Shown in pieces: positions 8,974 through 50,000 of a stretch of 64,000 bases of DNA. How positions within the stretch are numbered: the stretch's first letter is position 1; every line of letters starts with the position of its first letter. The translations under genes were made by a program, and so were the position numbers. Under the pieces are notes generated by a model that worked only from the letters and a program-made list of their open reading frames with translations, was not told where the DNA came from and made no database searches. The stretch is from an uncultured Candidatus Saccharibacteria bacterium (GTDB taxonomy: Bacteria; Patescibacteriota; Minisyncoccia; Phycocordibacterales; Phycocordibacteraceae). The DNA lies in NCBI GenBank assembly GCA_964398865.1, contig CAYNOO010000001.1, forward strand, positions 43,661 to 107,660, read 5' to 3'.

Positions 8974-9669
8974 TTGATCTATCTTACGTACGAGTATCTA
9001 ACTGGATATATGATTCAACTCTCTGAAAAAGCATTTAGGAAACTGATGATAGCGCTTGCGGTCTATCTTGCCGCTCTATTCTCAGCAAACACGCTTGGTC
9101 TCAAGATTATGCCGTTCTTACTCGGTTCGCATCTGTCAGTCGCGGTATTTTCCTTCCCTATCGTCTTTCTTATGACCGACATCATCGGAGAAGTCTACGG
9201 CAAGAAAGTGGCTAAACTCTTCGTGCTCGCCGGATTCATCGCGACAGCGCTTTTTATTGGATATTCCTTCCTCTCTCTTGCAATGCCTTGGTCAGATGCG
9301 GGTCTCTGGGCAAAAGACGGCTACAATCAGATTTTCGGAATCTCAGTTCGCATCGCCATAGCTTCACTCGTTGCCTTCATTATCGCTGAATACCAGGACG
9401 TCATCTCTTTCTTCTTTTTCCGCAATCGGTTCGGTGAGAAACATTTCTGGCTTCGCTCCACACTCTCTAACATCTGGTCGCAGTTCTTGGATTCAGCAAT
9501 CTTCATGGTTATCGCCTTCGCAGGAATCTATGCAACCCCTACTCTAATCAGCATCATCATCACGTGGTGGCTCTATAAGGTGGCTATGGGAATTCTCTAT
9601 ACCCCCCTTTCGTATCTCGGCATGTATCTTCTTCGACACGGTGAGACAGAAAAAACCATCACTCCGTAA
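8974..9669 (+). CDS. YhhQ/DUF165 family transporter (queuosine precursor transporter-like)
   Basis: Polytopic membrane protein with FPIVFLMTDIIGEVYG, typical of YhhQ-family proteins. The true start may be internal. Confidence 0.55.
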   Translation: MIYLTYEYLTGYMIQLSEKAFRKLMIALAVYLAALFSANTLGLKIMPFLLGSHLSVAVFSFPIVFLMTDIIGEVYGKKVAKLFVLAGFIATALFIGYSFLSLAMPWSDAGLWAKDGYNQIFGISVRIAIASLVAFIIAEYQDVISFFFFRNRFGEKHFWLRSTLSNIWSQFLDSAIFMVIAFAGIYATPTLISIIITWWLYKVAMGILYTPLSYLGMYLLRHGETEKTITP

Positions 9670-10174
9670 TGCACGCTTCATAGGTTACGTCGCATCTTCG
9701 ATTGACGGACGTATTTCTCTTGCAGCAAAAAAACGCCCCGACTGGACGAGTGCGGAAGATTGGAAATTCTTCCAGAACAAACTCGCTCTATCGGACGCGG
9801 TAGTCGTAGGGCGCAATACCTACGAAGCAGCTAAAACACGCCTTCAGAAAAGAAATACATACGTGCTTTCAAGCAAGGTCAAAAACCCTGTGCGTCGAGG
9901 ACATGTTACGTTTGTGAACCCGAAGCGCACAGATATCGCCACACTCCTTAAGGGTTACAAAAACGTTGCAGTGATAGGCGGTGCGCGCGTGTACCAAGAG
10001 ATGCTCGATAAGAATTTGCTTGATGAACTCTACCTCACTATAGAGCCACTTGTGTTTGGTCGTGGAACCCCGATGTTTGCGGGTGGTTCCAAAACACGAA
10101 AATTCAAACTGGTATCAGTAAAAAAACTAAATGCGACGGGCAGCATACTTCTTCGCTATCAAGTGATACGATAA
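9641..10174 (+). CDS. RibD C-terminal domain / dihydrofolate-reductase-like reductase
   Basis: IGYVASSIDGRIS...DWKFF...VVGRNTYE...VLSS pattern of the RibD_C / DHFR-like family. Confidence 0.5.
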   Translation: MRQKKPSLRNARFIGYVASSIDGRISLAAKKRPDWTSAEDWKFFQNKLALSDAVVVGRNTYEAAKTRLQKRNTYVLSSKVKNPVRRGHVTFVNPKRTDIATLLKGYKNVAVIGGARVYQEMLDKNLLDELYLTIEPLVFGRGTPMFAGGSKTRKFKLVSVKKLNATGSILLRYQVIR

Positions 10175-10180
10175 CCGCCT

Positions 10181-10888
10181 GTGAAAATCACACCGATAAA
10201 GACACGCATCTTCAAGAATGAAGAAAATCTCTCCGAGTTCATTATCGAGCATATAAAAAAGATTCCCGATGAAGCAATACTCGTCATTGCTTCTAAAATC
10301 GTCGCCCTCTCAGAAAACCACCTTGTTCAACATTCGAACGTTGAACAAGGTGGTGAGCGGTTGATAAAAGATGAGAGCGTATGGGCAATTAAATCCGGGA
10401 ACATGTGGCTCACCGAGAAAGACGGAATGATTATGGCGAATGCCGGTATTGATGAATCAAATGCAGATGGAGGAATTATCCTATTGCCTGAAGATAGCTT
10501 CGATTCAGCGAAAGTTTTGCGACAAACGCTCAAAAAGAAATTCGGGTTGAAGCACCTTGGCATCGTAATCACCGATAGCGCACTCATGCCTCTTCGCGCG
10601 GGAGTGGTCGGCGCAGCTCTTGGTTATGCTGGTTTCAAAGGAGTTCGTGACTATCGTGGCAAGAAAGATATTTTCGGACGCACACTCAAGATGTCCCGCA
10701 CTAATATTGCAGACAGTCTCGCAACTGCAGCAACATTGGTTATGGGCGAAGGGGCAGAGCGACAACCGCTCGCCGTTATCTTGGATGCGCCAGTGGAGTT
10801 CAGTGAAAAAATCAACCGGGAAGAGACACAAATCGCAGCGAAAGATGATATCTTTTGGCCGTTGTTGAAAAGAAGAAAAAAGTCTTAA
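10181..10888 (+). CDS. CofE-like F420-0:gamma-glutamyl ligase family protein
   Basis: IASKIVALSE and MANAGIDESN motifs characteristic of the CofE/F420 ligase fold. Confidence 0.5.
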   Translation: MKITPIKTRIFKNEENLSEFIIEHIKKIPDEAILVIASKIVALSENHLVQHSNVEQGGERLIKDESVWAIKSGNMWLTEKDGMIMANAGIDESNADGGIILLPEDSFDSAKVLRQTLKKKFGLKHLGIVITDSALMPLRAGVVGAALGYAGFKGVRDYRGKKDIFGRTLKMSRTNIADSLATAATLVMGEGAERQPLAVILDAPVEFSEKINREETQIAAKDDIFWPLLKRRKKS

Positions 10889-14890: not shown

Positions 14891-15256
14891 ATGCAGAACC
14901 CGCAAAGATCCTACAACGGAATCGTCATCAAAGGCGAGAACACCGGGACGCGACTTGGTTTCCCGACAGCAAATATCCCGCTCGAAGACATGGGGGTGGA
15001 CGGCATTTACGCCGCAACGGTCACCGTGGACGACATAGTGTACGAAGCGGGTGTGTACGCAAACCAGCGTCGCAACATTCTTGAGGCGCATCTATTGGAT
15101 TTTTCGGGTGATCTTTATGGGCAATCAATCACTATTACTCTCTACGAAAAAATCAGGGAAGAAAAAGAATTTGGCTCATTTGCTAATGAAGCTGAACTTT
15201 CTCAGACAATTGCGCAAGATATCAAGCGTGTACGTGCATATTTCAGAAAATCCTGA
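14891..15256 (+). CDS. riboflavin kinase domain protein
   Basis: GIVIKGENTGTRLGFPTANI and YGQSITITLYEKIR match the RFK fold. Confidence 0.75.
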   Translation: MQNPQRSYNGIVIKGENTGTRLGFPTANIPLEDMGVDGIYAATVTVDDIVYEAGVYANQRRNILEAHLLDFSGDLYGQSITITLYEKIREEKEFGSFANEAELSQTIAQDIKRVRAYFRKS

Positions 15257-15276
15257 TAGCGCGCTATTCTTGCAGG

Positions 15277-16203
15277 ATGGATATATTTAAAAAATACGCC
15301 CCGTTTATGGTTCTGTTCGCAGCGATGCTGTGGGCAACTGACGCGCCTTTTCGCGTCCATTTGACACACGAGCTTTCAAGCAGCTTCATTGTTCTCGCTG
15401 AGCATTTTATCGCCGTTCTTTTTATTCTTCCCATATTGATTTTCAATCTTGCGGAACTCAAGAAATTGAGACTGAAAGAGTGGTTCGCGGTCCTTTTTAT
15501 CGCTATCGGCGGAAGCGCTTTGGCGTCGGTTGCGTTCACGCAGGCGTTCCATTATCTAAATCCGTCAGTGGCGATTCTGCTGCAAAAACTGCAACCATTC
15601 ATGGTCATCGGCTTGGCAGCAGTCGTTCTTAAGGAAACGCTGTCTCGTCGCTTTTGGCTCTTTGCCACTGTGTCGCTTATAGGCGCCTACCTCATCTCAT
15701 TCCCCAACTTCATTCCTCAGACATACCCGGGCGAGACATTCAACGCCAACCTAGTTGGCGTGGGTCTCGCGCTCATCGCTGCATTCTTCTGGGGCGCGTC
15801 GACCGTATTTGGAAAAGTCGTACTGAACAAGACAAACTTTAAGGTCATGACGGCACTGAGGTTTTCAGTGGCATTCGTGTTTCTTATCTTCTTGAATATG
15901 GCTCAGCATTCATTCCCAGTATGGAGTTCCATCACGTCCACTGATTACCTCTTCATATTCATCATCGGCATGACTTCGGGGGTCGTCTCTCTCTTTATCT
16001 ACTACAAAGGGTTGGAGAACACGCGCGCATCTGTCGCCACTTTGGCAGAACTGGGATTTCCTCTTGCTGCGGTCATCGTAAACTGGCTATTCTTGGATGC
16101 TGTTCTTCTGCCAATGCAAATCTTGGGTATCGCCATTCTACTCGGAGGTGTGTATGGTCTTGCAAAATATAATAGAGAAACCGAGGCGATTAGCGCCACG
16201 TGA
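15277..16203 (+). CDS. EamA/DMT superfamily transporter
   Basis: 308 aa with about ten TM segments and a duplicated EamA-like architecture. Confidence 0.7.
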   Translation: MDIFKKYAPFMVLFAAMLWATDAPFRVHLTHELSSSFIVLAEHFIAVLFILPILIFNLAELKKLRLKEWFAVLFIAIGGSALASVAFTQAFHYLNPSVAILLQKLQPFMVIGLAAVVLKETLSRRFWLFATVSLIGAYLISFPNFIPQTYPGETFNANLVGVGLALIAAFFWGASTVFGKVVLNKTNFKVMTALRFSVAFVFLIFLNMAQHSFPVWSSITSTDYLFIFIIGMTSGVVSLFIYYKGLENTRASVATLAELGFPLAAVIVNWLFLDAVLLPMQILGIAILLGGVYGLAKYNRETEAISAT

Positions 16204-16228: not shown

Positions 16229-16951
16229 CTAAACTCTAAAGAGCGTTTCTCCAGCTCTTCTTTCTATTTCTTGAATGGATTTGTTGCGATGAATTATCTC
16301 GTCATTACGAACTGATCTGAAAAAATCATATTGATTCTTAGAATCGCGCCCGTACCACTCCAGGTAAGCGCTATGAATTGGTTTTTTCTTAAGCTCCTCC
16401 TCATTAGCACGTAGGAAACGATCGTATTGCTCAAAAGCATGCGCTTCGAACAGGTAGTTTAATTCAAATGCGTACCGCGCATTTAACAAATACAGCCAGT
16501 ATGCTATCCAAAAATAAAGGAAGGCGAAAATCATCGGAATGACCGTATGCAAAAACACGTTTGCTTTTTGTACCTCCTTTGCAAGAGTTGAGATAACAAC
16601 AACATGCATGGTCTCGTTGTCTTTCGCTATGCGTGCAAACTTAGCAAGAGCAGAGAGGCGCATTGCCTTTTCTTCATTGCGATAGAACATCGTAAGAAAT
16701 GTGAAAGCGGCGGAATCCCATGAATGGTAGGGTACGCGAGCAATTACCTCAATTGCTCTGAACTTCAGATACGAAGGTTCTTTCCCATACACGACGTTCG
16801 CACACCCAACGAGTAGGCGCCCGAGGATGCGCGGAAGAAAGTGGGGTTTATAGTCATCATAGGGTCGTTTGTATTCTTGGAGGACTTCGGGGTCATTGAG
16901 CTTAGTGTTCAGATCCTCAAGCGCTTTATCATGATATTCCATAGGGTGCAT
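16229..16951 (-). CDS. alternative oxidase (AOX/PTOX)-like di-iron carboxylate protein
   Basis: Four iron-ligand motifs in AOX order: IEVIARVP (E), NETMHV (ExxH), LFEAHAF (E..H) and RNDEIIH (ExxH). Confidence 0.55.
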   Translation of the reverse strand: MHPMEYHDKALEDLNTKLNDPEVLQEYKRPYDDYKPHFLPRILGRLLVGCANVVYGKEPSYLKFRAIEVIARVPYHSWDSAAFTFLTMFYRNEEKAMRLSALAKFARIAKDNETMHVVVISTLAKEVQKANVFLHTVIPMIFAFLYFWIAYWLYLLNARYAFELNYLFEAHAFEQYDRFLRANEEELKKKPIHSAYLEWYGRDSKNQYDFFRSVRNDEIIHRNKSIQEIERRAGETLFRV

Positions 16952-17032
16952 TGTAAACTACTCGGCTAAAAGAAAGGCATAAACGTATACTTCTAAAAAT
17001 GGCATGATACCTCATGCGGTAGGAACGACTTT

Positions 17033-17542
17033 TTGCAAACCTTTGTTCATTACTTTAGCTCACGGGGTATACTGGGCGGAATGGAAAACCAGGTACTCGT
17101 GAGCTGGCAGGCGCGGGAATATGAATTCCGCCCTAAGGAGCGGCAATGGTATTGGACGATAGGCATCGTCGCGATTGGTGCGGCTGTTGCTGCGTTCATT
17201 TTGAGAGACTACCTCTTCTCGCTCATCGCCATCATAGGCGGTTTCGCAGTAATGTTGATTGGTTCAAAAAAACCCTCAAAGCACAATTACAGCCTCTCAG
17301 AAAAAGGACTCTCCATTGGCACCCATCTCATTCCCTACTCCTTAATGACTAGGTTTTCCATCCGTGAAGATGAACCGAGAAAACTCAGTGTAGAAACAAA
17401 AAGGTTGACCGGCACCGTTAGCGCCCCATTGGGAGACGCCGATTACCGTCAGATACGCACTGAACTCAAAAATAGAAACATAGAGGAAGTTGAGGTCTTG
17501 GACTCATTTATAGACCAAGTCGTTGGCGGCATGGGGCTTTGA
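17033..17542 (+). CDS. hypothetical membrane protein
   Basis: Two adjacent TM helices, then a hydrophilic domain. The start may be MENQVL. Confidence 0.35.
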   Translation: MQTFVHYFSSRGILGGMENQVLVSWQAREYEFRPKERQWYWTIGIVAIGAAVAAFILRDYLFSLIAIIGGFAVMLIGSKKPSKHNYSLSEKGLSIGTHLIPYSLMTRFSIREDEPRKLSVETKRLTGTVSAPLGDADYRQIRTELKNRNIEEVEVLDSFIDQVVGGMGL

Positions 17543-17749: not shown

Positions 17750-17821
17750 GCTCCCGTCGTTCAATGGATAGGACATATCCTTGCGGAGGATACGATGTGG
17801 GTTCGATTCCTGCCGGGAGCA
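17750..17821 (+). tRNA. tRNA-Arg (GCG anticodon)
   Basis: Manual fold: acceptor GCTCCCG/CGGGAGC, anticodon arm TATCC-TTGCGGA-GGATA. Confidence 0.75.
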
Positions 17822-18007
17822 CAAGTACAAAAACAAGCTGCGCAAGCAGCTATTTTTGTTTGTGCTCCCGGAGCACGACAACTGCTTGTCGTGCGTCAGA
17901 AATCGAAAACCGGAGCCATGTCGCCTTTGCGACAGGCGAGGTCGGGCAGGAGCCACTTAGCGAGTCTTCGAGCTTAGTGAGATGCGCCGATTCCTGCCGG
18001 GAGCACA
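17822..18007 (+). repeat. tRNA-trailer element copy 3 (downstream of tRNA-Arg-GCG)
   Basis: Partial inverted copy of the tRNA 3' end at 17860-17871. Hairpin at 17872-17894. Conserved core (reverse-complement orientation) at 17943-17988. Direct 19-nt copy of the tRNA 3' end at 17989-18007. Confidence 0.7.
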
Positions 18008-18013
18008 AATACA

Positions 18014-18046
18014 AAAAACTCCAGACAATTGTCTGGAGTTTTTTGA
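18014..18046. terminator. bidirectional rho-independent terminator (tRNA-Arg/element and rpsT)
   Basis: ctccagaca-attg-tctggag stem flanked by an A6 run and a T6 run. Confidence 0.75.
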
Positions 18047-35390: not shown

Positions 35391-36491
35391 TCAGCGATTC
35401 ATTGGCATCACAAGGTAGGTGAAGCCTTTTCCGGTGCCATCAGTCATAACCATTGGCTTACCAGCCCCTGCTACAGAAAACGTGATGCTGTCGCCAGCAA
35501 CCACCGAAAGGGCGTCGACTATATATTTTGCATTAAAATTTATGTCTATATCCTCCCCTTTAAGAACCGCGGGGAAGTGATCTACTGTTTCCCCAACAGA
35601 AGCATTGACTGCTCTAACGGTAAAAGTCGCCTCAGACGGCTTAAGGGAAATATGTACCTGATTAAAGGAATCAGTAAATATAGAGACCTTGCGAAAGGCA
35701 CGGGTAGCGTCCTCCTTGAGACAGGTCGCCTCCACAACATAATCACGAGGGATGATGGCGTGATAGTCAGGGAATGACCCGTCGATAGTTCGTGAAGTTA
35801 TATGACCGGAATCAGATATGAATGAGCACTGATTATCCCCCACCCGTACCTCAACCTCAGTCCCTGATTCAATGGCCCGCAATATATCAGCGACATTACG
35901 TGCCGGTATTAATACCGAACCAAAAGAACTCTTTGTCTTTAGTGGTATTTTCACCTCAGCAAGACGGAAAGAATCGGTCGCAACTGCGATCAACTCCCCC
36001 TTCTCCAAACTAAGAGAGATACTTGAAAGCTCTGGCTTAACACTAGAAGTTGATGCTGAGAATGAAACCGCTCTGAGTGCGGTAATAAACTCACGAGTTG
36101 GTAGTACCGCAGACACCCCCTCCCCCTCTTTTACGTACGGTAGTGTCGGGAACTCAGAATTATCTACAAGAGTAATAGAGGTAGTACCTCGATCTCCGTC
36201 AATAATAAGATTATTCCCTGACGTTTTGAGTATTAACTTTTGGTCCGTCAATGCCGACACCGTCTGTGAGAGTACTTGTGCTGGAATGGCTATAACACCA
36301 TCTTGGATTGTTTTTGCTTTTAATACGACCTCGACACTTAAATCTAAATTGGTGGCACGAAGTACTGCCCGACCTCCTTCAACAACAATCAAAACGCACC
36401 CAAAAACCGGCAGTGAAAGACTTTTATTACTCACCTTAGCTGCAACATTCACCGCCTTCTCTAAGTTTTCTCTCAATATCTCCATTTTCAT
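35391..36491 (-). CDS. dnaN: DNA polymerase III beta sliding clamp
   Basis: 366 aa. N-terminus MKMEILRENLEKAVNVAAKVS... and three-domain clamp length. Confidence 0.9.
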   Translation of the reverse strand: MKMEILRENLEKAVNVAAKVSNKSLSLPVFGCVLIVVEGGRAVLRATNLDLSVEVVLKAKTIQDGVIAIPAQVLSQTVSALTDQKLILKTSGNNLIIDGDRGTTSITLVDNSEFPTLPYVKEGEGVSAVLPTREFITALRAVSFSASTSSVKPELSSISLSLEKGELIAVATDSFRLAEVKIPLKTKSSFGSVLIPARNVADILRAIESGTEVEVRVGDNQCSFISDSGHITSRTIDGSFPDYHAIIPRDYVVEATCLKEDATRAFRKVSIFTDSFNQVHISLKPSEATFTVRAVNASVGETVDHFPAVLKGEDIDINFNAKYIVDALSVVAGDSITFSVAGAGKPMVMTDGTGKGFTYLVMPMNR

Positions 36492-36723
36492 ATTTTCTTT
36501 AGTTTAAGAAGATATTCTTATTCTAATACACTGTGGACGGAGGGGGTAGCTTAAAAAGCTTTCATTTAAGCTGTATTTTATAAGTGTTTTAAAGAAAAGC
36601 TGTTTATAGCGCCACACTATTGTGTGTATAGTAACTGTTTGTATATAAGAATATTTTTTTTGAATTATTTTCCACACTTTTTCCAACAGCATTTCCAATG
36701 AGTTATTCATATCCTTTTCAACA
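36492..36723. promoter_or_regulatory. putative oriC / DnaA-box cluster in AT-rich dnaN-dnaA intergenic region
   Basis: AT-rich 230 bp with TTTTCCACA (36667-36675), TGTGGAC (36532-36538) and related TGTGTATA motifs. Confidence 0.4.
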
Positions 36724-38070
36724 TTATTTCAACATACCCCGTATCTCCTCGATCTGTGTTTTCAAATCACCATCACTCAGTATTCCTCCGCGGACTTTTT
36801 CACACGCATGTATGACGGTGGTGTGATCTCTTCCCCCGAACACAGTTCCAATAGCCGGGTATGAAAGGTGGAAGTCCTCGCGCAAGATGTACATCATTAT
36901 TTGTCTTGGGCGAACAACCTCACGACGACGAGTTTTTGCATACATACTCGCTTCGTCAATATTATAGAACTCAGCAATCCGTGAAATCACATGTTTTACT
37001 GACACTACCCGTTTAGGGCGCGCCGTTGTCTTTATGAGGTCTTTTATCTGCTCTTCCGAAAGCGTTCCTTTTAGTTGTATCTGACAAAGAATCGTATTCA
37101 ACATCCCCTCTATCTCGCGAATATTTCCTGGAACCGCCATAGAAAGATTTTCAATGGTAATGTCCGACAAGGTTAGATTCATCGATTGCGCCTTCGTCTT
37201 GATAATAGCCATACGCGACTCGTGGTCAGGTTCGTTTATGGCAACCGCCATACCAGCGACGAAACGAGATTTCAAGCGCTCGGTGATGTCTGGGATGAGG
37301 TTTGGGTGCCGATCAGAGGAGCAGACAATCTGTTTGTTGGCGTCGTGGAGTGTATTGAAGAGATGAAAAAATTCCTCTTGGATAGTTCCTTTTTTAGAGA
37401 AAAATTGTATGTCGTCGATAATAAGCACATCATACGAGCGGTATTTTTCTTTGAATGATGGAATACTGCGGTTGTTGATGGCATTCATGAACTCAAATCC
37501 AAATCTTTCAGCGGTAAGATAAAAAACTTTCTTCGAGGGGTAGGTTTTTTTTATCTGATTCCCCACCGCTTGGGTGAGGTGAGTTTTCCCTCGACCAGTT
37601 TCGCCGTATACGAAGAGTGGATTGTAGGCGATGCCGGGATTTTTAACTACCACTTGCCCCGCGGTGAACGCGAGCTCATTAAAAGGTCCTACGACGAAGG
37701 TATCGAACGTATAGCGTGGGTTCAGGTTGTCGGAACGATTGATGTAATAGTCGGAAAGCGGTAGCTCTGATTCAGGTCGTGTTTCAACTACAACTTTCTC
37801 AGGCGTTCTTTTAGGGCTTTCTTTCGAAACGATGTATTCAACGCCACGAAGTGTATCTACGAAGCCGCGGATGGTTTTTAAGACAAGCTTGCCAAAACGT
37901 TCAGAAATCCACTCTTTCGTTAATTGATTGGGAACGCCTACAAAAACGACCCCGTCTTCTATGCGCACGATATGGGTTTCCCCGAACCACATCTTGAAAC
38001 TCGCTGGGGATATTGAAAGCTCTATGTTAGTTAGTGTATTTTCCCAGAGTTGCTTCGTGTCGAGTTCCAT
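36724..38070 (-). CDS. dnaA: chromosomal replication initiator DnaA
   Basis: AAA+ GETGRGKTHL Walker A, DDIQFF Walker B, C-terminal DNA-binding domain VSRIAEFYNIDEASMYAKTRRREVVRPRQIMMY. Confidence 0.9.
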   Translation of the reverse strand: MELDTKQLWENTLTNIELSISPASFKMWFGETHIVRIEDGVVFVGVPNQLTKEWISERFGKLVLKTIRGFVDTLRGVEYIVSKESPKRTPEKVVVETRPESELPLSDYYINRSDNLNPRYTFDTFVVGPFNELAFTAGQVVVKNPGIAYNPLFVYGETGRGKTHLTQAVGNQIKKTYPSKKVFYLTAERFGFEFMNAINNRSIPSFKEKYRSYDVLIIDDIQFFSKKGTIQEEFFHLFNTLHDANKQIVCSSDRHPNLIPDITERLKSRFVAGMAVAINEPDHESRMAIIKTKAQSMNLTLSDITIENLSMAVPGNIREIEGMLNTILCQIQLKGTLSEEQIKDLIKTTARPKRVVSVKHVISRIAEFYNIDEASMYAKTRRREVVRPRQIMMYILREDFHLSYPAIGTVFGGRDHTTVIHACEKVRGGILSDGDLKTQIEEIRGMLK

Positions 38071-38173
38071 GTAAGTTCGGTCATTATACCCGTGTGGAGA
38101 AAACAGCAAACTTGCGGAAAAGACTCCTCCGTGTTAATAAACTGTGAGATACTTGTGTATAACATTTCACACG

Positions 38174-41199: not shown

Positions 41200-41850
41200 T
41201 TAATGAGAAGCAGTCGATGCTGGGCAGCTTTGAACAGCCTCCCCAATCCCGGCACACCCGTTTGTTCCGGGCGCTAAAAACTTATTATCAATTCGGCACG
41301 TCAAAGTACATCCTGCTTTTAAAGTTCCCGTGTACGGCAATAAGTCAGTACCGCTCGGTAGCGTATTAGCGCCTGCAGCACCCAGACCTCCTGTGGCAAT
41401 ACTACTACCCAAAGGGACTGTTACGTTTGAACCGCTTCCCCCCAAGGCACTTAAGTCATCAGTGAGTGCCTTTAGATTGAGTATATTTGGATTAATGACG
41501 TTCAGTATGATATATGACAATAAAAGCAAAATGAGTCCGAACGCTGCGCCTTGGATGCCTTCCACGGCACTCTGCTTTTTCCCAATGACGTCAGAGGTCA
41601 TGTATTTCAAACCTTCGAACGTGATCATCACGACCCCAAGAATAGCCGCAATGCCAATGGAGAGCGTGAATACTGCATTTAGGTAGTCAGTAAGCGAGGT
41701 GCTTGCATTAACCGCGCTGCCAGTAGGAAGTGGTATGGAAACAATCGGCTGAAATTGAAATTGCCCAGGAGCGTCCGCAGCATGGGCAAGATGCGCCCCA
41801 CCGACGATGCTGGCAGTAAGTAAGATCAGAATGATGAGAGCTCGGCGCAT
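41200..41850 (-). CDS. VirB2/TrbC-like pilin candidate with Gly/Cys-rich C-terminal extension
   Basis: Signal peptide followed by two hydrophobic helices, the VirB2/TrbC topology. Sits next to a VirB4 gene. Confidence 0.3.
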   Translation of the reverse strand: MRRALIILILLTASIVGGAHLAHAADAPGQFQFQPIVSIPLPTGSAVNASTSLTDYLNAVFTLSIGIAAILGVVMITFEGLKYMTSDVIGKKQSAVEGIQGAAFGLILLLLSYIILNVINPNILNLKALTDDLSALGGSGSNVTVPLGSSIATGGLGAAGANTLPSGTDLLPYTGTLKAGCTLTCRIDNKFLAPGTNGCAGIGEAVQSCPASTASH

Positions 41851-41851
41851 A

Positions 41852-42823
41852 TCAAAATGTAAGTTGGAATGAAGCATCGGCATGCTCTAAGAATTTTTTT
41901 GCACTTTCAAACGAAACACTCACTGCGTGTGTACCGCTTCCGCCTCCGACTTTCCTGAACGTAGCCGCACGAGGTTTCAGAGGGTCCACCGCAAAGGGTA
42001 TGGTATCAAGATTCCACGTAAACGACACATCATTCAGATCACTTGCGAACATCGGATACGCAATGAATGAGACTTCTTCGTCTACAAACGGAAACAGCCC
42101 CGTGAGCGCTCGGTCAAAACGCATTCCAAGAAGAGGCGCGTTTTCGTAAATGATGACGGAAGGAGTCTGCGGTTCTATGCGCACGGAGTTTTCTGCAACA
42201 ATAGTACCGTCTCGCGTGCCCGCGACAACAGAGACATTGAATGCTGTCGCAAAACGCGGTGGTGTCATAGTTATGCTCGACTTTCCATACCCAGATTGTT
42301 TTTGTGTATACACACCATCTATTTTCCACGAATACACGAGAGAGTTCGCGGAAACTTCGTTGCCATTTGTAGTAAGGTGTGGAATCGCCATAATTCTGAC
42401 CGTGCTTTGCCCGCTCGGAAGAGGGCGCCCTATATATAAAGGTGGTGTATACGTAACCCCTTCCCAAACTATATCGACTGATGCTGGGCGGATGATTGCG
42501 ACAGCATCCCCTCTCGGGACACCGTTTTCAATCGCAACGACACGAATTGTTTGTGCAGCCCCCAAGGTCCCTGCAGTAATCGAAATCGACGTGTGATCGA
42601 CCCCTTGGTCAACGGTGGCGCCATTTACCAACCACATATAGGCAGTGGTGCCTGTCTCTTGTGCCGGGTCTGAGACGGTGAGCGTTACCGTGTTGCCGGG
42701 CACAGGATGTTCAGGGCTCACGCCTATTTCCAATACGGATCCAAAACTAGGTAAAAGTGCAGCCGCTGCAAAAGACGGTGCAATCAAGAGAGCACATACG
42801 ACAATAATCGCTTTCTGGAGCAT
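41852..42823 (-). CDS. secreted hypothetical protein of T4SS-like cluster
   Basis: Signal peptide, then 323 aa, beta-rich, no TM segment. Confidence 0.4.
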   Translation of the reverse strand: MLQKAIIVVCALLIAPSFAAAALLPSFGSVLEIGVSPEHPVPGNTVTLTVSDPAQETGTTAYMWLVNGATVDQGVDHTSISITAGTLGAAQTIRVVAIENGVPRGDAVAIIRPASVDIVWEGVTYTPPLYIGRPLPSGQSTVRIMAIPHLTTNGNEVSANSLVYSWKIDGVYTQKQSGYGKSSITMTPPRFATAFNVSVVAGTRDGTIVAENSVRIEPQTPSVIIYENAPLLGMRFDRALTGLFPFVDEEVSFIAYPMFASDLNDVSFTWNLDTIPFAVDPLKPRAATFRKVGGGSGTHAVSVSFESAKKFLEHADASFQLTF

Positions 42824-42917
42824 AGTACAAGGCTCATTATACGGGCGAGGATGCGGTTTCGAGCTCCCACTTTAGATTCTAGGGGAAATCACCCTTATGT
42901 AGAGACTTCGACCTATT

Positions 42918-44726
42918 CTATTCCGCTCCCTCTTTTTTCTCGCGAGCTATAGCCAAGAGTTGCGAAGGGTCAGAGGTAATTATCTGATCCTCAGTGTAGG
43001 AGGCGATGATTTTTATAGCTACGTGCTTAAGACCTGCAAAAAAGATGCCCTCCCCTACGTCTGACTCAAGGAGTAGATATTTTTCCTCTTCGGTCAAATT
43101 GAATGTTTTTTGTACGGCTTCTATGGATGTGGGCGACTGCTTTAAAAGAATCTGAATGGAGGAGTTTGTGAGCATTGGCAAGCCATAGGGGGATTTCAGG
43201 AAGTCCTCAACGTCCTGCGTGATGGTAGCGAGCCCGAGATAGTATTTTCTTCCACGCTTCGCCATGCCGTAGAGGAATGCAGCAGTGTCTTCCGACTTCA
43301 TCATCCACCACGCTTCGTCGATCACGAGAAGACGTTTGCGCAGATCTTTCCTGACCGCATTCCATATGAAGTGCGTGATGATGTACATGGCGATGGTCTT
43401 GAGCTCGTCCTCCATGTTACGAACCGAGAACGCTACGAACTTTTTGTTGATGTCGACGTTTGTTGGGCGATTGATGAAACCCGACCATGTGCCTTTGGTG
43501 TACTTTGTTATTCGCTGCACCAAAGACTCGCTTCCCTCCATGCCGGCAAGCACGAGTTCGAAGTCAGACAAAAGAGGCGGCTCCATGTTACTGAAATCAT
43601 TTGCCCCCGTTATGTCTTTCAGTGCGTATGTTTCAGTGATAGCCCTGTCTACGATGGCATCTTCCTCAGGAGTAAGACCACCGAGCATCAAGCGAAATAA
43701 TCCGACGAGGTTGATGATGTTTGAGCGAAGTATGTCAGCGGGCGATTCATCCTCGCGTGGCACCGGCAGGTCGAAAGGATTGATGCGGTTTTCTGATGAG
43801 AGCGATATGTTGAAGAATCTACCACCAACCGCGTTTGCCAGGTACTCGTATTCGCTTTCAGGATCTATAACAATGACTTCTGTGTCGAACATCAGTGACC
43901 GTAAGATTTCGAGCTTCGTGCCATATGATTTTCCGGAACCTGATTTTGCAAAAGTTACTGAGTTATAGTTTTCCAAAGAAAACCTATCAAAGAGAATGAG
44001 AGATGAGTTGTGTCTGTTGATGCCATAGAGAATCCCCTTGTCGCTCGTCAGGTCGAACGATATGAACGGGAAGAAGCTTGAGAGCGGAGCAGAATTCATT
44101 TTTGAGTTAACCGCGAGCTGGTCATCCCCTATCGGTATGACACTCTTGAATCCTTGCTCTTGCTGGAAGAGTGCTGGCTTTATATAGACGAGCTTAGCGT
44201 CCAGGATTGAACGCATTTCCGCCTCCGTCTTATCGAGCTCATCCTGGTTTGTTCCATAAATAGATATATAGAGCCCCACATCAAACACACGCTCTTGTGC
44301 TTGCTGGAGCTGGTTTCTGAGTTGCTCGATGTCTTGGTATGCCGTATCGAGCATCGGGTCGCGCACCATGCCTTTTTCTTGGCGCGTCATGATTTGGCTC
44401 TGCACCTCTGCGACTTTTTTCTGGAACTTCCGCAGGATTGCTGCTGTGTCGACAGGATGAATGAAAATAGAGATGTCCAACACTCTGTCGCGGTTGATGA
44501 TGGGAGCGAACCACGTTCCCGATAAGAAACGTGGGTATGAAATTACATAAAAGGTGCGGACGAGCTTATCACCCAAGTTCATCTCGCGCGGTGTTATTTT
44601 CAACGCTGAGGGCGCAATAATGTCTGCAAAATCAAGCTTCGCCGCTTCGTAAATGTCTTTCGGCAGGAACGGCGTTAGCTCCTGCTTCTTTTTTTCTCCA
44701 CCAGTTAGAAAATCAAGTATTGCCAT
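42918..44726 (-). CDS. virB4: VirB4/TrbE-family type IV secretion ATPase
   Basis: Walker A FAKSGSGKSY, Walker B LLVIDEAWWMM (the DEAW motif typical of VirB4/TraC), VirB4-type N-terminal domain. Confidence 0.8.
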   Translation of the reverse strand: MAILDFLTGGEKKKQELTPFLPKDIYEAAKLDFADIIAPSALKITPREMNLGDKLVRTFYVISYPRFLSGTWFAPIINRDRVLDISIFIHPVDTAAILRKFQKKVAEVQSQIMTRQEKGMVRDPMLDTAYQDIEQLRNQLQQAQERVFDVGLYISIYGTNQDELDKTEAEMRSILDAKLVYIKPALFQQEQGFKSVIPIGDDQLAVNSKMNSAPLSSFFPFISFDLTSDKGILYGINRHNSSLILFDRFSLENYNSVTFAKSGSGKSYGTKLEILRSLMFDTEVIVIDPESEYEYLANAVGGRFFNISLSSENRINPFDLPVPREDESPADILRSNIINLVGLFRLMLGGLTPEEDAIVDRAITETYALKDITGANDFSNMEPPLLSDFELVLAGMEGSESLVQRITKYTKGTWSGFINRPTNVDINKKFVAFSVRNMEDELKTIAMYIITHFIWNAVRKDLRKRLLVIDEAWWMMKSEDTAAFLYGMAKRGRKYYLGLATITQDVEDFLKSPYGLPMLTNSSIQILLKQSPTSIEAVQKTFNLTEEEKYLLLESDVGEGIFFAGLKHVAIKIIASYTEDQIITSDPSQLLAIAREKKEGAE

Positions 44727-44728
44727 AA

Positions 44729-45400
44729 TTATTCAACAGGAGCGGGTTGTTCCATAACGATAGGTTTTTCTAATTCTCCTGGATTGAACTCTCTGTAGAG
44801 AAGCTCTATCACTTCTTCGGTGCCAAGAGGAACCGTCCGTACACCAGTGCGAGCGAGTCCTTGCTCCACTGTTCCCATTCTTTGTTCTAGTTGGGTGCGA
44901 TGTTCTTCGAAACCAATAGTGCTTTCGTCGCGCGACGAGAGATTTGTTTTTCCGAAAATTTTGTTCTGCACCGCTTTCTTTACATCCAGCATCGGCGGCG
45001 AGTACGGAATAACGATGAAAAAATGCTTGCTCATAATATTTGCGCGTTCGATGAACGTCTTTATAAATTCTATATATTCACGCACCTGTATTTTCATTAG
45101 CTCTTCTGTCTGCGCCTTTAGACGTTCATCGAGAAGCGCGATGTAGGGTCGTATATCCAATTTTCTGGACTGCACGAAAAACTGAACGCTAAAATCTAGT
45201 GAATTCATAAAACTCTGGAACTGGGCGAGGATAGCATTCTGCTCGTCCTCGGATTTGAGTGCAAAGTTGATGGATGATGCAAGCATTACCCCTACGAGCG
45301 TGCCGCTTTTCATCACCATCACTCCCCCACGGACTTCTTTCACTGGAACGAAATCCTGCGCCGCCTTTGTTTTTTTTGTCTTCTCATCTCCTCCAGCCAT
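44729..45400 (-). CDS. hypothetical protein with VirB4 N-terminal-domain-like region
   Basis: 223 aa. KEVRGGVMVMKSGTLVGVMLASSINFALKSEDEQNAILAQFQSFMNSL...VQFFVQSRKLD mirrors the pattern at the N-terminus of VirB4 proteins. No NTPase motifs. Confidence 0.3.
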   Translation of the reverse strand: MAGGDEKTKKTKAAQDFVPVKEVRGGVMVMKSGTLVGVMLASSINFALKSEDEQNAILAQFQSFMNSLDFSVQFFVQSRKLDIRPYIALLDERLKAQTEELMKIQVREYIEFIKTFIERANIMSKHFFIVIPYSPPMLDVKKAVQNKIFGKTNLSSRDESTIGFEEHRTQLEQRMGTVEQGLARTGVRTVPLGTEEVIELLYREFNPGELEKPIVMEQPAPVE

Positions 45401-45414
45401 AGATATAGGTTTTA

Positions 45415-45424
45415 GGTGTCAGGT
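45415..45424. repeat. left inverted repeat (aggtgtcagg) flanking the four-helix-bundle gene
   Basis: Perfect reverse complement of 45800-45809. Confidence 0.6.
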
Positions 45425-45790
45425 CCCAGCTTTCAGGGAAGAAAGTAATTTTGAAAGCATCATTCTTATCTCAAGAATTAAACGCCCTGCTTCATTATAG
45501 TCTGCTTTCTGAGCGTAGAAGAGATCCTCGGCAATGATTAACTGGGTATCTAGTTCCGCTAAAGATCCAAGTGCAAAATATAGGAATTGAATAAAATCTT
45601 TCTTGCTTCGTCTACCTCTACCTTCTGCGATATTTGAGGGCACAGAAACCGCGGCTCTTTGCATTTGTGATGCAAGACCATACCATTCTTCCGGAGGAAA
45701 TTTTTTTGATATTCTGTAAATATGTGAAACTAGGGTAATGCTTTTTTGCCAAACAATCAGATCTTTATATGACTTTATGTTCCTATCCAT
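45419..45790 (-). CDS. four-helix-bundle protein (Avd / 23S rRNA intervening-sequence protein family)
   Basis: YKDLIVWQKS...FPPEEWYGLASQMQRAAVSVPSNIAEGRGRRSKKDFIQFLYFALGSLAELDTQL is the hallmark of the PF05635-type four-helix-bundle family. Confidence 0.7.
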   Translation of the reverse strand: MDRNIKSYKDLIVWQKSITLVSHIYRISKKFPPEEWYGLASQMQRAAVSVPSNIAEGRGRRSKKDFIQFLYFALGSLAELDTQLIIAEDLFYAQKADYNEAGRLILEIRMMLSKLLSSLKAGT

Positions 45791-45799
45791 CTTCTTCAA

Positions 45800-45809
45800 C
45801 CTGACACCT
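45800..45809. repeat. right inverted repeat (cctgacacct) flanking the four-helix-bundle gene
   Basis: Perfect reverse complement of 45415-45424. Additional partial repeats (ctttcagg at 45430-45437 and cctgaaag at 45807-45814). Confidence 0.6.
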
Positions 45810-45828
45810 GAAAGCGGAAACCTGAAAC

Positions 45829-46266
45829 CTATTGTTGCTTTTTATCCGAATACACACTCTCTTTGATGTCTAAACTCCACGCTAAGTCTTTTATTTTGTT
45901 TGCTGTTGCTGACGGGACGTACTTTGCCGGATCTTCAGCTTGCGTTTGCCCAGGGAGCATAATTTCTTCAGGGAGCACGGTTTTTGATTGTTTCTTTTCC
46001 CAGATGTAGAGTTTGGTGCGAAAAAGATACTGAAAGCCGGACTCAAGGGCGTTAACAAGCGGTCGATCGTTAATTTTATAGAACGCAAGAGCTGCGCCTA
46101 AAAGTGCGACAGGTCCGCCAATAAGTACCGCAATCCAGTGTGGTGCTATAAGCCATAAAGCAACCAAAAACCCGCCTCCTCCAACCAAGTACACGAATTG
46201 CACTGCAGTGAGAGGACCAAAAATTTTATCTTCAACCTCGACAAATTGCGGTACTTGAAATTGCAT
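45829..46266 (-). CDS. PrgI-family (VirB3-like) T4SS membrane protein
   Basis: MQFQVPQFVEVEDKIFGPLTAVQFVYL N-terminus followed by two TM helices, as in PrgI/VirB3-like proteins of Gram-positive T4SSs. Confidence 0.45.
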   Translation of the reverse strand: MQFQVPQFVEVEDKIFGPLTAVQFVYLVGGGGFLVALWLIAPHWIAVLIGGPVALLGAALAFYKINDRPLVNALESGFQYLFRTKLYIWEKKQSKTVLPEEIMLPGQTQAEDPAKYVPSATANKIKDLAWSLDIKESVYSDKKQQ

Positions 46267-46268
46267 AG

Positions 46269-47060
46269 TTATTCAACAGGTTCTCGATAGGGATCAACCC
46301 CTCCTTTATATGCGGGTTTTGAAGGCGGGGGTGTTGTAGATAGTTGTTTTGACTCGACCTCTGCCGTTTCAGGCTGGATTTCTACGGTAGGGTTGGAAGT
46401 AGTTTGTGTTTGAGATGGTACACCGAGTTTTTGCTCCACTATGCTCGGGATAGTCTGATCTCCTAGGACAGTAGAATCGGATGCTTCCTCTATGTCCACG
46501 TCGTCTTCGTCGGTTTCTGGGATAATCGGGTCCTTTTTCGCTTGTTCCAATGCGAATGCCAACTCCTTCTTGTTTTCCTCGTCCCTCTTTGCGGCTTCCG
46601 CTCGATCCTTTTCGTATTCTGCCAACAATCTCGGATCATCATCTGGCATATTTTCTATCTCTTTGCGTCTTACCTCCTCGGCGCGCTCTTCTTCCGAGAG
46701 TTCCGGCTCCGAGGGCTTTTCGGTCCATACGCTCGGCTCGGGTATATTTTCCTTGACGCGACGAGACGCTTCCTTGAAGACACGATCATTGATATCGGCA
46801 ACGAGTTCCCGCGCCCCCTGATTGGATAGTTCATGCATCGCTTGGTGCAAGTTTGTTTCGAGCGCAGACTCGCTTTCAAGACCCAACAAAGTCAGGTTTG
46901 CGATCTCGGTGAAGAGAAGCAGTTGTCGTAAGTTCAGAGCATGTTTTTTCTGTATGCCGATATAGATATTCGTCAGCGACGTGGAACCTAAAAAATCATA
47001 AAGCGGCTTCGGCAACTTCTTTTTTGCTTCCTCTCTTTCTCCCTGCGTGTGCGATTTCAT
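46269..47060 (-). CDS. acidic hypothetical protein of T4SS-like cluster
   Basis: 263 aa, highly charged and disordered central/C-terminal region. No family recognised. Confidence 0.4.
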   Translation of the reverse strand: MKSHTQGEREEAKKKLPKPLYDFLGSTSLTNIYIGIQKKHALNLRQLLLFTEIANLTLLGLESESALETNLHQAMHELSNQGARELVADINDRVFKEASRRVKENIPEPSVWTEKPSEPELSEEERAEEVRRKEIENMPDDDPRLLAEYEKDRAEAAKRDEENKKELAFALEQAKKDPIIPETDEDDVDIEEASDSTVLGDQTIPSIVEQKLGVPSQTQTTSNPTVEIQPETAEVESKQLSTTPPPSKPAYKGGVDPYREPVE

Positions 47061-47074
47061 ATGCTATTTCTGAT

Positions 47075-50000
47075 TTAAACTGGATTTTCCCATGACCTTA
47101 CCATGCGCGCTATGTCCCCTGTCAGTTTCCCGCGCCTATCAAGCTCTTTGAAGCCGGCGATTATGCTTCGTCTCATATCAGCGTTGCTGCCGTACCTCTC
47201 GAGTATTTTCAATACTGTTGAAGGTCTTTTTATTCCCGGGAGTGCCAGCGTGATGATTCTTGGCGGCAGCGTCACTATCTGATCGTCAGTCCAATCGCTC
47301 ATATATGACTCGGCTTTTCGTATCTGCTCTTCTGAGTAAGGGACGTTTCGGTCAAAACTGTTGAAGTAATCTTCAGGAGAGAGAGTAGGTTCGGGAGCCG
47401 CTTGCGTTGGGGCCGCTTGCGTCGTCACGGTGGGGGCTTCGGCTACAGGGGCTTCATCTGTGGGGGCGACTGAATAGTCATTGCTGCTGCTGCCCGGGTC
47501 AATCGGAACACCGCCTCTATTTCGTTCTGCCGCTTCCGCCTCTGCAATATCTGCCGCCTGCCTCTCGGTGAAGGTGGTATCCGTATCCACACCACCGTCT
47601 TCAAACGGTTCCGGTGCGGAGAAATCTGAGGGCGGGACGAACCCAGGAACGTTTACTGGCTCTGGGGCGCTTGGTGTCGGTCCCCGTGGACCGCCGCCGC
47701 CTGGTGTGAAGGTCGGACCCCCTCCGCCCCCGGGACCTCTCCCTGTAGGTGGTTCAGGGGTTTCTCCGCCGAAGCTTGCGGTGATTGCCTCTTCCGAGAA
47801 GACTTCAGGTAATGGGGCTTTGTTCATCGCCTGACGCCACAAGTTAATGCGTCGGATACGCTCGGGGGTTGGCCAACCGAAAATGCTTTTCATATGTTCA
47901 TTGCCAGCGTAGTTGGCGATCATCGAATCATCTCCGCGAGTAAGGAGTTGGGCAAAGAATTCCTGCCTCTCGGCGATGTCTTGTCCCTCGAGCGATTGCA
48001 GCTGATCGGCGTCGACGCCGATCGGGGTGTTCGTCGACCACCATGTTCGGTTGTTGAATATCGCCTTGATTTCGCGCGGATTTTTTCCTCGGTAGTAACC
48101 GCGGGTAGCTTCCTCGGTTTGGACGAATCTGTGTATCGCGAAGTTCGCAGGGTCTTGGAGAAACGCTTCTCTTGTTGCGGGGTCATCTAGCGTACCGTTT
48201 CGCTGAGCCTCAAGGTATCTGTTTTTCGCCTCCGTCATCACCTGTAATCTCTTTGCATCCCGCAGCTCCTCTCTCTTTATGCCTTTCGCTTCGTATTCTC
48301 GGTACTCCGCTTCGTTGATGTTCGCAATCCTCCTATCCACTTCGCTTTGGAGGGGATTAAAACCCTCCTTCTGTGCGGCTATCACCATTTTGGCGTAGCG
48401 CTGATTACTTTCCGCGAGTCTCAAGTCACTTTGGCTTACGGAATTCGGATCAAACCTCGCTTTATTTATTAGTCTCTGCGTTTTACCGTTTTCGTTAAGT
48501 GTTTCTTCCGCCCACTTCACGGCTCTTTCTGCTCCGTGATAGTTGACTGTGCCATCCTCATATGGGAGGTGGTCTCTACTTTGCAAGCCAAACAACATAT
48601 AAGCACCTGCTTGCTGGTCGCGCACCCTATCGAGCGGTCTTCTTTTTTCAGAGCCGAAGTCACGCTGCTCTGTCGTTGGAAGAAGTTTTTTATCTTTGAT
48701 GTCTGCGAATACACTGCTCGAGAATACTTGAGGAAATACCGCTAGCTTACGCAGATCTTGGAATCTTTCTCCGGTCGACTCATCAAAGACAGCATCTGAA
48801 AGCAAGAGATCTTGCATCTCGTCACTCGTCGGGATGTTTTTCTTTTGGTCGTTGAATAGGGCGAGCGTGTTTGCACCATATACTTCTCCCCCCTCCAAGA
48901 ATTCACCACTATCCACGTTTCTTTGGATATTTCTGACATTTTGAGCCCACACACCGTAACGAGACTTGATCATCGCGTTCTTTATGTCGCGTCTGATTTT
49001 GGGATCCTTTCTAACTTCCAACCATTGGCTGTTAGGAAGGATTTTAGCAAGCTTGATTATTGATTTCGGATCTTTGTCGTATTCTCGTTCCCAGAATCCA
49101 GAGGAAATGCTTGCATAGATTGCTTCTGCATCGGTACGACTCTTTCTGTAAGAATTTTTACCATCCAGTTTTGCAGCGTCCATCCTTTCGTGGTATGCCC
49201 ATTTGTCTTCCCCTGCGCCCTCATCAGGGTTAGCATTCTCGAGGTCCGTTAGTCGCCCTCTTTCTTTAGCGGTAAGCGTGCCAGCAAGCCCTTTTGCTTT
49301 GAGGTCGTCTAGCTCGCCTTTGAATAGATGTTTCCTGCCAAGTTCCCCCCGCGACTCTTGCCTGTCCCAGAACTCACTCCATGTCTCAAGACGACCTTCT
49401 CTGTTGACCTTCCCTTCAGTGTTTAACTTCTCAAGATTCTGCAATTCAGCTTTCTCGTGCGCCAGGAGAGCCCCACTTTTCGCTTTGGTGCGTAGTTCCT
49501 CTAATCGGTCCTGACCAATCCTCAGTCGTTCGTTTCCGGCCGCGTATTCGGCGGAAAATGCGTTTTCCATGCGATCCATTTTTCCAAGAGCGCCACCTTC
49601 TCGCTTGCGTTCATCCAACTCTTCCATCTTTTTTTTCTCATCTACCGTAAGTTTTTTCCCAAGTTCCGCGAGTCGCGCAACTTCTCTCGCGGTGAGAGTC
49701 TTTGGGTCTTTTTTCCGAAGTTCATCTAGTTCGTTTTGTTCCGCAGCCGTAAGGATTCCTGCCCCCGCTTTCTTCTTAAGCGCTTTGTACAGCTTCTTTT
49801 CGTCGCGCGTCCAGGTTCCGTTTAGTTCCGCTCTTTGTTTCTCATCTTTTTCCACTTCGCCCAATTCGACTTCACGAGCTTTTCGTTTCTCCTTTACGGA
49901 ACCGTAATCATCGAAACCAAAGAACTTCTGACCTTTTGCTTGGGCCAGCCGTTCTTGCGCCCATCTGTCGCCCGCCCGCAACATTGCTCCTAAAACAGGG

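Follow-up and report, generated by a model that had tools for sequence, protein, structure and literature searches.

The AOX/PTOX superfamily of di-iron oxidases takes in the mitochondrial and proteobacterial alternative oxidases (AOX), represented structurally by that of Trypanosoma brucei (TAO), and the plastid or plastoquinol terminal oxidases (PTOX) of cyanobacteria, cyanophages and plastids. Literature searches on AOX, PTOX and quinol oxidases in Patescibacteria, Parcubacteria, the candidate phyla radiation (CPR) and DPANN turned up no description of the family presented below, apart from a single CPR match in a phylogeny of the Naegleria AOX, which that paper attributed to gene transfer out of Proteobacteria (PMC9540462). 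Looking only at haem-copper and bd oxidases, Beam et al. inferred that Patescibacteria and DPANN ancestrally had no O2 reductase (PMC7507113). The family is missing from a 2025 catalogue of O2-using genes in CPR (PMC12577380), a 2024 review does not mention it, and the genome paper on Parcubacteria C7867-001, in which we find a family member (P0053, locus L018), does not list an AOX-like gene (PMC4508563). Here we analyze a 64,000-nucleotide stretch of contig CAYNOO010000001.1 from an uncultured Candidatus Saccharibacteria bacterium, referred to throughout as the window. The gene at 16229..16951 on its minus strand encodes what is very probably a functional di-iron oxidase of the AOX/PTOX superfamily, hereafter the oxidase; as such it is a plausible O2 reductase, which this radiation is commonly said to lack.

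The gene is real and intact. The list of open reading frames (ORFs) gives it an ATG start and 240 codons, and an alternative in-frame ATG at 16942 yields a 237-aa product that is the NCBI protein P0001, 100% identical. A first-pass annotation of the window, made from the letters alone, had noted four iron-binding motifs in AOX/PTOX order within a 240-aa protein, and the translated ORF confirms them. The first, E68, lies within RAIEVIARVPY and is followed by N112-E113-T-M-H116, by E169-A-H171...Y176 within LFEAHAFEQY, and by D217-E218-I-I-H221. Read directly from the DNA, the reverse complement of 16604-16618 is AACGAGACCATGCAT, with the codons AAC GAG ACC ATG CAT for NETMH. The search that the annotation had proposed as a check, with the profile hidden Markov model PF01786, identified AOX at 42.2 bits compared to a gathering score of 22.7 (E = 9.1e-11). 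The match spans residues 62-223, corresponding to profile positions 54-209 of 216, and all listed homologs carry a precomputed PF01786 match. Because PF01786 was the sole Pfam match even at E <= 10, with no Coq7, rubrerythrin or ferritin family found at that threshold, the annotation's placement of the protein in the AOX/PTOX superfamily stands. Judged by the Pfam AOX match (E = 9e-11) and the invariance of the motif residues, the presence of the motifs is far beyond chance.

An AlphaFold2 model built from an alignment of 32 homologs reached a pLDDT of 87.5 and a pTM of 0.87. When this model was compared to the PDB with Foldseek, the top 12 matches were all TAO (probability 0.99-1.00, TM 0.47-0.56, 15-19% identity), and the first match to any other protein had E = 1.9. 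COQ7 appeared at E = 4.0 (probability 0.08, TM 0.25) and ferritins at E > 2, with no ferritin or COQ7 probability above 0.25. The model strongly supports an AOX-type fold with a four-helix bundle and two membrane-surface helices. In sequence searches, phmmer with the single oxidase sequence found no match in the PDB, TAO included, at E <= 10. When the family was combined with more distant relatives in one profile, TAO aligned to it through all four motifs (E = 2e-12). These comparisons bear on the idea that the protein belongs to another ferritin-like di-iron family, such as a Coq7-type hydroxylase, a rubrerythrin-like peroxidase or a ferritin, and reached its AOX motifs by convergence. A JGI record does name the family member P0479 a ‘demethoxyubiquinone hydroxylase (CLK1/Coq7/Cat5)’, and NCBIfam, in which nothing was above threshold for the oxidase, gave a non-haem ferritin-like protein at 12.6 bits compared to a cut-off of 154. 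Yet AOX is the only Pfam family matched, Foldseek assigns COQ7 a probability of 0.08 compared to ~1.0 for TAO, and in its ligand spacing and membrane helices the protein conforms to the AOX/PTOX pattern. Convergence is thereby refuted for the sequence and the predicted fold, and we give it almost no credence.

The residue roles for TAO are those of the 3VV9 structure (ligands E123, E162/H165, E213 and E266/H269, with N161, Y220 and D265), and the TAO numbering offset is consistent with the alignments used. The six di-iron ligands of the oxidase follow the order E / ExxH / E / ExxH (E68, E113, H116, E169, E218, H221), and in the predicted four-helix bundle these four Glu and two His residues are carried by helices alpha2, alpha3, alpha5 and alpha6. 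An alignment of 32 family members (58-76% identical) has 65 invariant columns, among them all six metal ligands. A broader alignment of 44 sequences, drawn from the Patescibacteria family, its archaeal branch, an Acidimicrobiales clade and genuine PTOX, keeps 14 columns without variation (E68, A71, P74, Y75, N112, E113, H116, E169, H171, A172, Y176, D217, E218, H221). The second shell of Asn112, Tyr176 and Asp217 is intact, and it is invariant both among the 32 members and in all four clades. This pattern strongly supports strong purifying selection on the oxidase. It also bears on whether we are looking at a decaying relic that no longer functions, as might be supposed of an otherwise fermentative, minimal organism in which no partner genes are seen; the ORF, however, is intact, every catalytic residue is among the 65 invariant columns, and hundreds of reduced genomes have kept the gene, so we find a relic very improbable.

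Two predicted helices would occupy the positions of the membrane-surface helices of TAO and appear suited to anchoring the protein in one leaflet. Residues 38-55 have a hydrophobic moment of 0.46 and a mean hydrophobicity of 0.36, and residues 132-156 have the highest hydropathy in the protein (KD19 = 2.03) and align with the hydrophobic TAO segment IIITQAIMYLFLLVAYVISPR. The N-terminal extension, which falls outside the Pfam AOX match, is modeled as two helices (residues 6-17 and 21-31) with a block-mean pLDDT of 96-97 over residues 11-30, and contains the invariant residues E12, L14, L18, Y27 and Y34. At the other end of the protein, the members P0013, P0053, P0025, P0044, P0066 and P0102 (258-272 aa) carry an extra hydrophobic, transmembrane-like tail of ~25 residues that is absent from the window protein. 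This subset suggests two membrane-anchoring modes within the family. The parts of the protein and its immediate neighbors are collected in Table 1.

Table 1. Features of the oxidase gene and its immediate surroundings (positions in the window)
Feature	Position	Strand	Evidence
CDS, AOX/PTOX-like di-iron oxidase	16229..16951	-	ORF list, PF01786 42.2 bits, P0001 match, AlphaFold2 model, Foldseek
Residues 1-37, family-specific N-terminal two-helix extension, consensus LNxxLNDPxxLxEYKxPYDxYxP	16841..16951	-	Alignment, AlphaFold2 model
Residues 38-55, amphipathic helix alpha1, predicted membrane-docking	16787..16840	-	AlphaFold2 model, hydrophobic moment
E68, first iron ligand (IEVIARVPY)	16748..16750	-	Invariant; aligned with TAO E123 (TAO LETVAGVPG)
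N112-E113-T-M-H116, second ligand pair and second-shell Asn	16604..16618	-	Aligned with TAO N161/E162/H165 (NERMH)
Residues 132-156, very hydrophobic aromatic-rich helix alpha4, predicted membrane-embedded	16484..16558	-	Hydropathy; TAO alignment
E169-A-H171-A-F-E-Q-Y176, third ligand Glu and catalytic-type Tyr	16424..16447	-	Aligned with TAO E213...Y220
D217-E218-I-I-H221, fourth ligand pair and second-shell Asp	16289..16303	-	Aligned with TAO D265/E266/H269 (RADEAEHR)
81-bp divergent intergenic region between oxidase gene and DUF5673-like gene; presumed promoter region	16952..17032	.	Gene coordinates
DUF5673-like membrane protein, divergent neighbor (context only)	17033..17542	+	Neighbor clustering
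Riboflavin kinase, convergent with oxidase gene (context only)	14891-15256	+	Pfam Flavokinase
EamA-family transporter, convergent with oxidase gene (context only)	15277-16203	+	Pfam EamA

Although the first-pass annotation had called such proteins rare in bacteria, the family is abundant. At E <= 1e-3, a protein search yielded 1040 clusters. Those ranked in the top 120 are 60-76% identical to the oxidase and, where a source is named, come from metagenome-assembled genomes (MAGs) of Patescibacteria, Paceibacterota, Parcubacteria, Kaiserbacteria and Minisyncoccia. Scanning one genome per GTDB species, we found that at least 210 species genomes, essentially all Patescibacteria, encode the family, and the best 80 of the 210 were all from such Patescibacteria MAGs. 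A few record titles instead read Gammaproteobacteria, Bacillota or ‘uncultured Saccharibacteria’, labels that look generic or wrong because their loci share neighbor clusters with Patescibacteria loci. The family is a distinct, large and unstudied clade, essentially all of it in Patescibacteria and a few archaea.

The archaeal members are ~50% identical to the window protein and lie on contigs with archaeal marker genes (L088:8001-8696, L089:1899-2585 and L090:1145-1831). L088 carries RpoH, RpoB'', RpoB', RpoA' and RpoA''; L089 carries S27ae, GatE and a beta-CASP nuclease; and L090 has a LeuRS of archaeal type. For RpoH, RpoB'', S27ae, GatE and the LeuRS, NCBIfam equivalog matches above cut-off confirm an archaeal nature, and the beta-CASP nuclease of L089 is below its cut-off. 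In a neighbor-joining (NJ) tree, the archaeal members form a subclade nested inside the Patescibacteria diversity. This nesting suggests transfer from bacteria to archaea, and hence cross-domain transfer of the oxidase among small-celled organisms. One member of the archaeal subclade, P0417, is labeled Minisyncoccia; its contig spans 2 kb, and it may have been binned wrongly.

Within the bacteria, the surroundings of the gene argue for vertical inheritance. The window order RuvX, DUF5652, tRNA-Ser, riboflavin kinase, EamA, oxidase, DUF5673, tRNA-Arg, S20, RuvA, Mur ligase is seen again in independent assemblies with oxidases 62-76% identical to each other or to that of the window, the flanking order being kept in L001, L007-L014, L016, L027 and L030. 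The synteny of riboflavin kinase and EamA with the oxidase is kept only within the window's subclade. The first-pass annotation had raised horizontal acquisition, and a recent acquisition, or a binning or assembly contaminant in place of a native gene, would be in keeping with the low overall GC of the gene (0.434, z = -2.4), with the Proteobacteria reading of the lone CPR match (PMC9540462), and with a serine recombinase two genes away in a few related loci. However, the gene sits amid housekeeping genes (RuvX, tRNA-Ser, S20, RuvA, Mur ligase) on one contiguous sequence, the same order recurs across the divergent oxidases just described, and the nearest relatives are all Patescibacteria rather than Proteobacteria; the Proteobacteria-transfer reading does not fit this family. 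Since GC3 (0.456, z = -0.65) and codon usage are ordinary, the low GC can be put down to amino-acid composition. Conserved synteny and ordinary codon usage together lead us to reject recent horizontal transfer; this explanation is very improbable and essentially refuted. By these measures, the oxidase gene is vertically inherited in this lineage, and any transfer between phyla would be ancient. On a smaller scale, L023, L024 (11864-13546) and L056 each have a large serine recombinase at a distance of two genes from the oxidase, which hints at occasional mobility within Patescibacteria.

What, then, does the oxidase do? We think it probable, with real room for doubt, that it is a non-pumping, membrane-surface quinol:O2 oxidoreductase that acts on externally acquired quinone and serves O2 scavenging or redox balance, the substrate being one that we infer. 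In such a mechanism, a lipophilic quinol would enter the active site from the membrane and be oxidized there, and O2 would be reduced to water at the di-iron center with no pumping of protons. The quinol would most likely be acquired from a host or the environment, because these organisms are not known to make quinones, and a flavoprotein dehydrogenase with its gene elsewhere in the genome would return the quinone to the reduced state. The benefit would be O2 scavenging, re-oxidation of reducing equivalents in an otherwise fermentative cell, or both. The oxygen-detoxifying role that the first-pass annotation had suggested is plausible. The idea of borrowed quinones has been raised before: Nelson and Stegen, who reported Parcubacteria genomes to be without quinone biosynthesis, proposed host-derived quinones for C7867-001, which has a cytochrome bd quinol oxidase and no quinone biosynthesis genes (PMC4508563). 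With such a conserved oxidase encoded across at least 210 species genomes, a sizeable part of the Patescibacteria radiation may reduce O2, with a bearing on its tolerance of oxic groundwater and soil, and quinone borrowing from hosts becomes a directly testable question.

Several observations weigh against a quinol oxidase. The Patescibacteria family and its Acidimicrobiales sister clade are known from sequences alone, with no characterized member. A profile of the 32 close homologs, used alone, misses TAO by sequence at E <= 10, and the fold is a prediction only, with a Foldseek root-mean-square deviation to TAO of ~8 Å. Positions of the TAO quinol/inhibitor pocket are partly altered (R118 to K63, E215 to H171, T219 to Q175), so substrate preference may differ. 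The genes nearby offer no partner either. As the first-pass annotation had observed for respiratory-chain genes, Pfam searches of the ~50 genes in the window revealed no respiratory complex, quinone-biosynthesis gene or quinone reductase. We also clustered the ORFs from 73 loci and ran Pfam on recurrent neighbors: no operon partner is conserved among these loci, the neighborhood is lineage-specific beyond the window's subclade, and no quinone reductase or quinone gene is conserved beside the oxidase in the 73 loci.

One way to accommodate these points is to keep the fold and the di-iron center and change the substrate, either to another lipophilic molecule that is oxidized, hydroxylated or desaturated, or to a protein donor, for example of the cytochrome b5 type. 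The departures from TAO at K63, H171 and Q175 would then reflect a different job, as might the conserved, family-specific N-terminal extension. A membrane protein with a cytochrome b5 domain does lie two genes away in four loci, and Patescibacteria generally lack quinone biosynthesis and electron-transport chains (PMC4508563; PMC7507113). Set against this, the second-shell network of Asn, Tyr and Asp that marks the oxidases is preserved in full, H171 in place of TAO E215 is the PTOX state and is common to genuine PTOX, and the cytochrome b5 neighbor occurs in only 4/73 loci. It also counts against a different job that, to our knowledge, every characterized PF01786 member is a quinol oxidase. 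We regard another substrate as unlikely and retain the quinol oxidase as the preferred reading. A more sweeping proposal is that the family is a third, overlooked class of O2 reductase, widespread in Paceibacteria-type Patescibacteria and also present in some small archaea, that would need no endogenous quinone and would draw on host-membrane quinol or a non-quinone donor. This is speculative, and we consider it quite unlikely. Were it true, many symbionts deemed strictly fermentative and devoid of oxygen reductases would actually consume O2, and the cross-domain sharing would reflect selection in the episymbiotic lifestyle.

The most frequent neighbor of the oxidase gene is the DUF5673-like cluster (cl4), present in 19 loci, within two genes of the oxidase in 15/19 and immediately upstream in 11; its link to the oxidase is one of neighborhood context alone. 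Promoter and terminator scans around the oxidase gene gave counts near the shuffle expectation. In 16952..17032, the consensus scan found one weak sigma-70-like match, which is uninformative because it overlaps the start codon. Scattered loci place redox genes beside the oxidase. A FAD-linked oxidase resembling D-lactate dehydrogenase adjoins it in L084 (8281-9948), L085 and L054, and a multicopper oxidase does so in L022 (237-1493) and L052. The membrane protein with a C-terminal cytochrome b5 domain is found nearby in L055, L066, L080 (1396-2115) and L083, and CcdA/DsbD_TM and SOUL haem-binding proteins adjoin the gene in further scattered loci. These neighbors occur in a minority of loci and none is family-wide; they hint at possible electron donors or an O2-stress module.

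The rest of the window is typical of Patescibacteria, with dnaA/dnaN, RuvABC, PolA, aminoacyl-tRNA synthetases and PBP1, and it also holds type IV pilus, type IV secretion system (T4SS)-like, vitamin-uptake and flavin-salvage genes. Between 14 and 19 kb, only two tRNAs reached Rfam gathering scores, and an sX4 match at 28 bits compared to 70 was taken as chance. The last 19 nt of tRNA-Arg(GCG) and the 11 nt downstream (17804-17833) are repeated 184 nt on, at 17988-18017, with 29/30 positions identical and hairpin-forming inverted repeats between the two copies. The arrangement resembles an att-type duplication, or else a scar left where an element had once inserted at the tRNA. At 14891-16203, a stand-alone riboflavin kinase lies directly upstream of an EamA/DMT transporter, with an aldo-keto reductase next in L001. 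Because some DMT-family proteins transport riboflavin, the two genes may form a pair for riboflavin uptake and FMN salvage. A Vut_1 vitamin-uptake transporter, a DHFR/RibD_C-like reductase and an F420-0:gamma-glutamyl-ligase-like gene occupy 8974-10888, in the same order as in the related contig L001; the last of these is odd in an organism not expected to make F420. Farther along, dnaN and dnaA at 35391-38109 coincide with a dip in GC to 0.426 at 36-38 kb, likely marking the replication origin region of the chromosome. The minus strand of 41200-53304 holds a T4SS-like cluster. Its genes encode, among others, a T4SS pilin-like protein, a 602-aa TraG/VirB4-like ATPase and a 1434-aa protein bearing a TrbL/VirB6 domain, and several of its ORFs have no Pfam match. 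The region of this cluster has a strongly negative AT skew, -0.32 at 48-50 kb.

The oxidase can be placed among its relatives by a profile search of 1.84 billion representative proteins, which returned 518 relatives at E <= 1e-3 in three tiers. The first tier is the Patescibacteria oxidase family itself. The second has the motifs LELVARVPYQAW / QDNEQWHLLI / IGxDERxHK and belongs to a family of 4682 proteins that carries the label ‘alternative oxidase’ in MAGs of Acidimicrobiales and Ilumatobacteraceae. The third is canonical PTOX (LETIARVPYF / NELHHLLI / IRDDExEH), and no canonical AOX was among the best 150 matches. In an NJ tree with 100 bootstraps, for which a partial TAO sequence served as root, the Patescibacteria family is monophyletic with 97% support, the Acidimicrobiales tier with 86%, and the two group together with 97%. 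The window protein is 27% identical to the Acidimicrobiales tier, 28% to PTOX and 17% to TAO. Spacings between the ligand glutamates (E1-E2/E2-E3/E3-E4) are 45/56/49 in the Patescibacteria family and 45/57/47 in the Acidimicrobiales tier, compared to 39/52/69 in PTOX and 39/51/53 in TAO. This evidence makes the Acidimicrobiales AOX-like family the sister group of the Patescibacteria family, with PTOX a nearer relative than mitochondrial-type AOX. The first-pass label ‘AOX-like’ therefore survives for the superfamily and falls for canonical AOX, given that the tree, the identities and the motifs put the protein closer to PTOX and closest to the Acidimicrobiales clade.

The Acidimicrobiales/Ilumatobacteraceae clade is uncharacterized and named by PGAP (for example P0143 and P0336). 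Besides the ligand-spacing pattern, it shares with the Patescibacteria family a QDNE..H motif, a Lys at the position of TAO R118 and a length of ~235-250 aa, and its genes likewise stand alone, in surroundings that are uninformative. The two differ in the ~27% identity, in motif 4, which is IGxDERxHK there and RNDEIIHRN here, and in the N-terminal LNDP...YK.PYD.Y signature of the Patescibacteria family, which the Acidimicrobiales clade lacks. Its hosts are free-living aerobic Actinomycetota, presumably with their own quinones and respiratory chain.

PTOX offers the best annotated tblastn matches, genes on Nostoc and Acaryochloris plasmids at 27-29% identity (E down to 1e-13), with cyanophage PTOX at 26-28%. 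Compared to the PTOX motifs LETxARVPYF, NE(L/M)HHL, ExHA...Y and RDDExEH, the oxidase shares ARVPY and ExHA...Y, with the His two residues past the third ligand Glu where AOX has Glu, and differs at NETMHVV and RNDEIIHRN. It lacks the ~20-residue insertion between helices 5 and 6 of PTOX, so that E3-E4 is 49 compared to a median of 69 in 26 PTOX-type sequences; it has 6 more residues between E1 and E2 and a different N-terminus; and its family is found in non-photosynthetic organisms without known plastoquinone. We rejected PTOX sensu stricto, given the missing long E3-E4 segment and the position of the oxidase in its own clade outside PTOX in the NJ tree. An unannotated Nostoc pn1 locus was likewise rejected as a close relative, being ordinary PTOX.

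Coq7 and the soluble ferritin-like proteins share with the oxidase a four-helix-bundle di-iron carboxylate scaffold with ExxH; they lack AOX-type membrane helices and motif spacing, and gave no Pfam match and a negligible structural match. AOX, represented by TAO (3VV9), belongs to the same Pfam family and provides the only solved fold that matches. Its six ligands, Tyr and Asn/Asp second shell align one-to-one with those of the oxidase, and its two membrane-surface helices lie at the same positions. The motifs nevertheless diverge at 17% identity (AVPG to ARVPY, NERMH to NETMH, LEEEA to FEAHA), cyanobacterial PTOX finds TAO at 1e-6 whereas the Patescibacteria family profile does not at E <= 10, and the ubiquinone-producing host cell of mitochondrial AOX has no counterpart here. 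Mitochondrial-type AOX was rejected because its motifs LET(V)A(A/G)VPGMV, NERMHL, LEEEA and RADE(A)xHR are not matched, in addition to the low TAO identity and the lack of a pairwise PDB match. Since the oxidase fits neither PTOX sensu stricto nor mitochondrial-type AOX, it represents a third architecture in the superfamily. For structure-function work, this architecture brings its own ligand spacing and N-terminal extension, features partly shared with the Acidimicrobiales clade.

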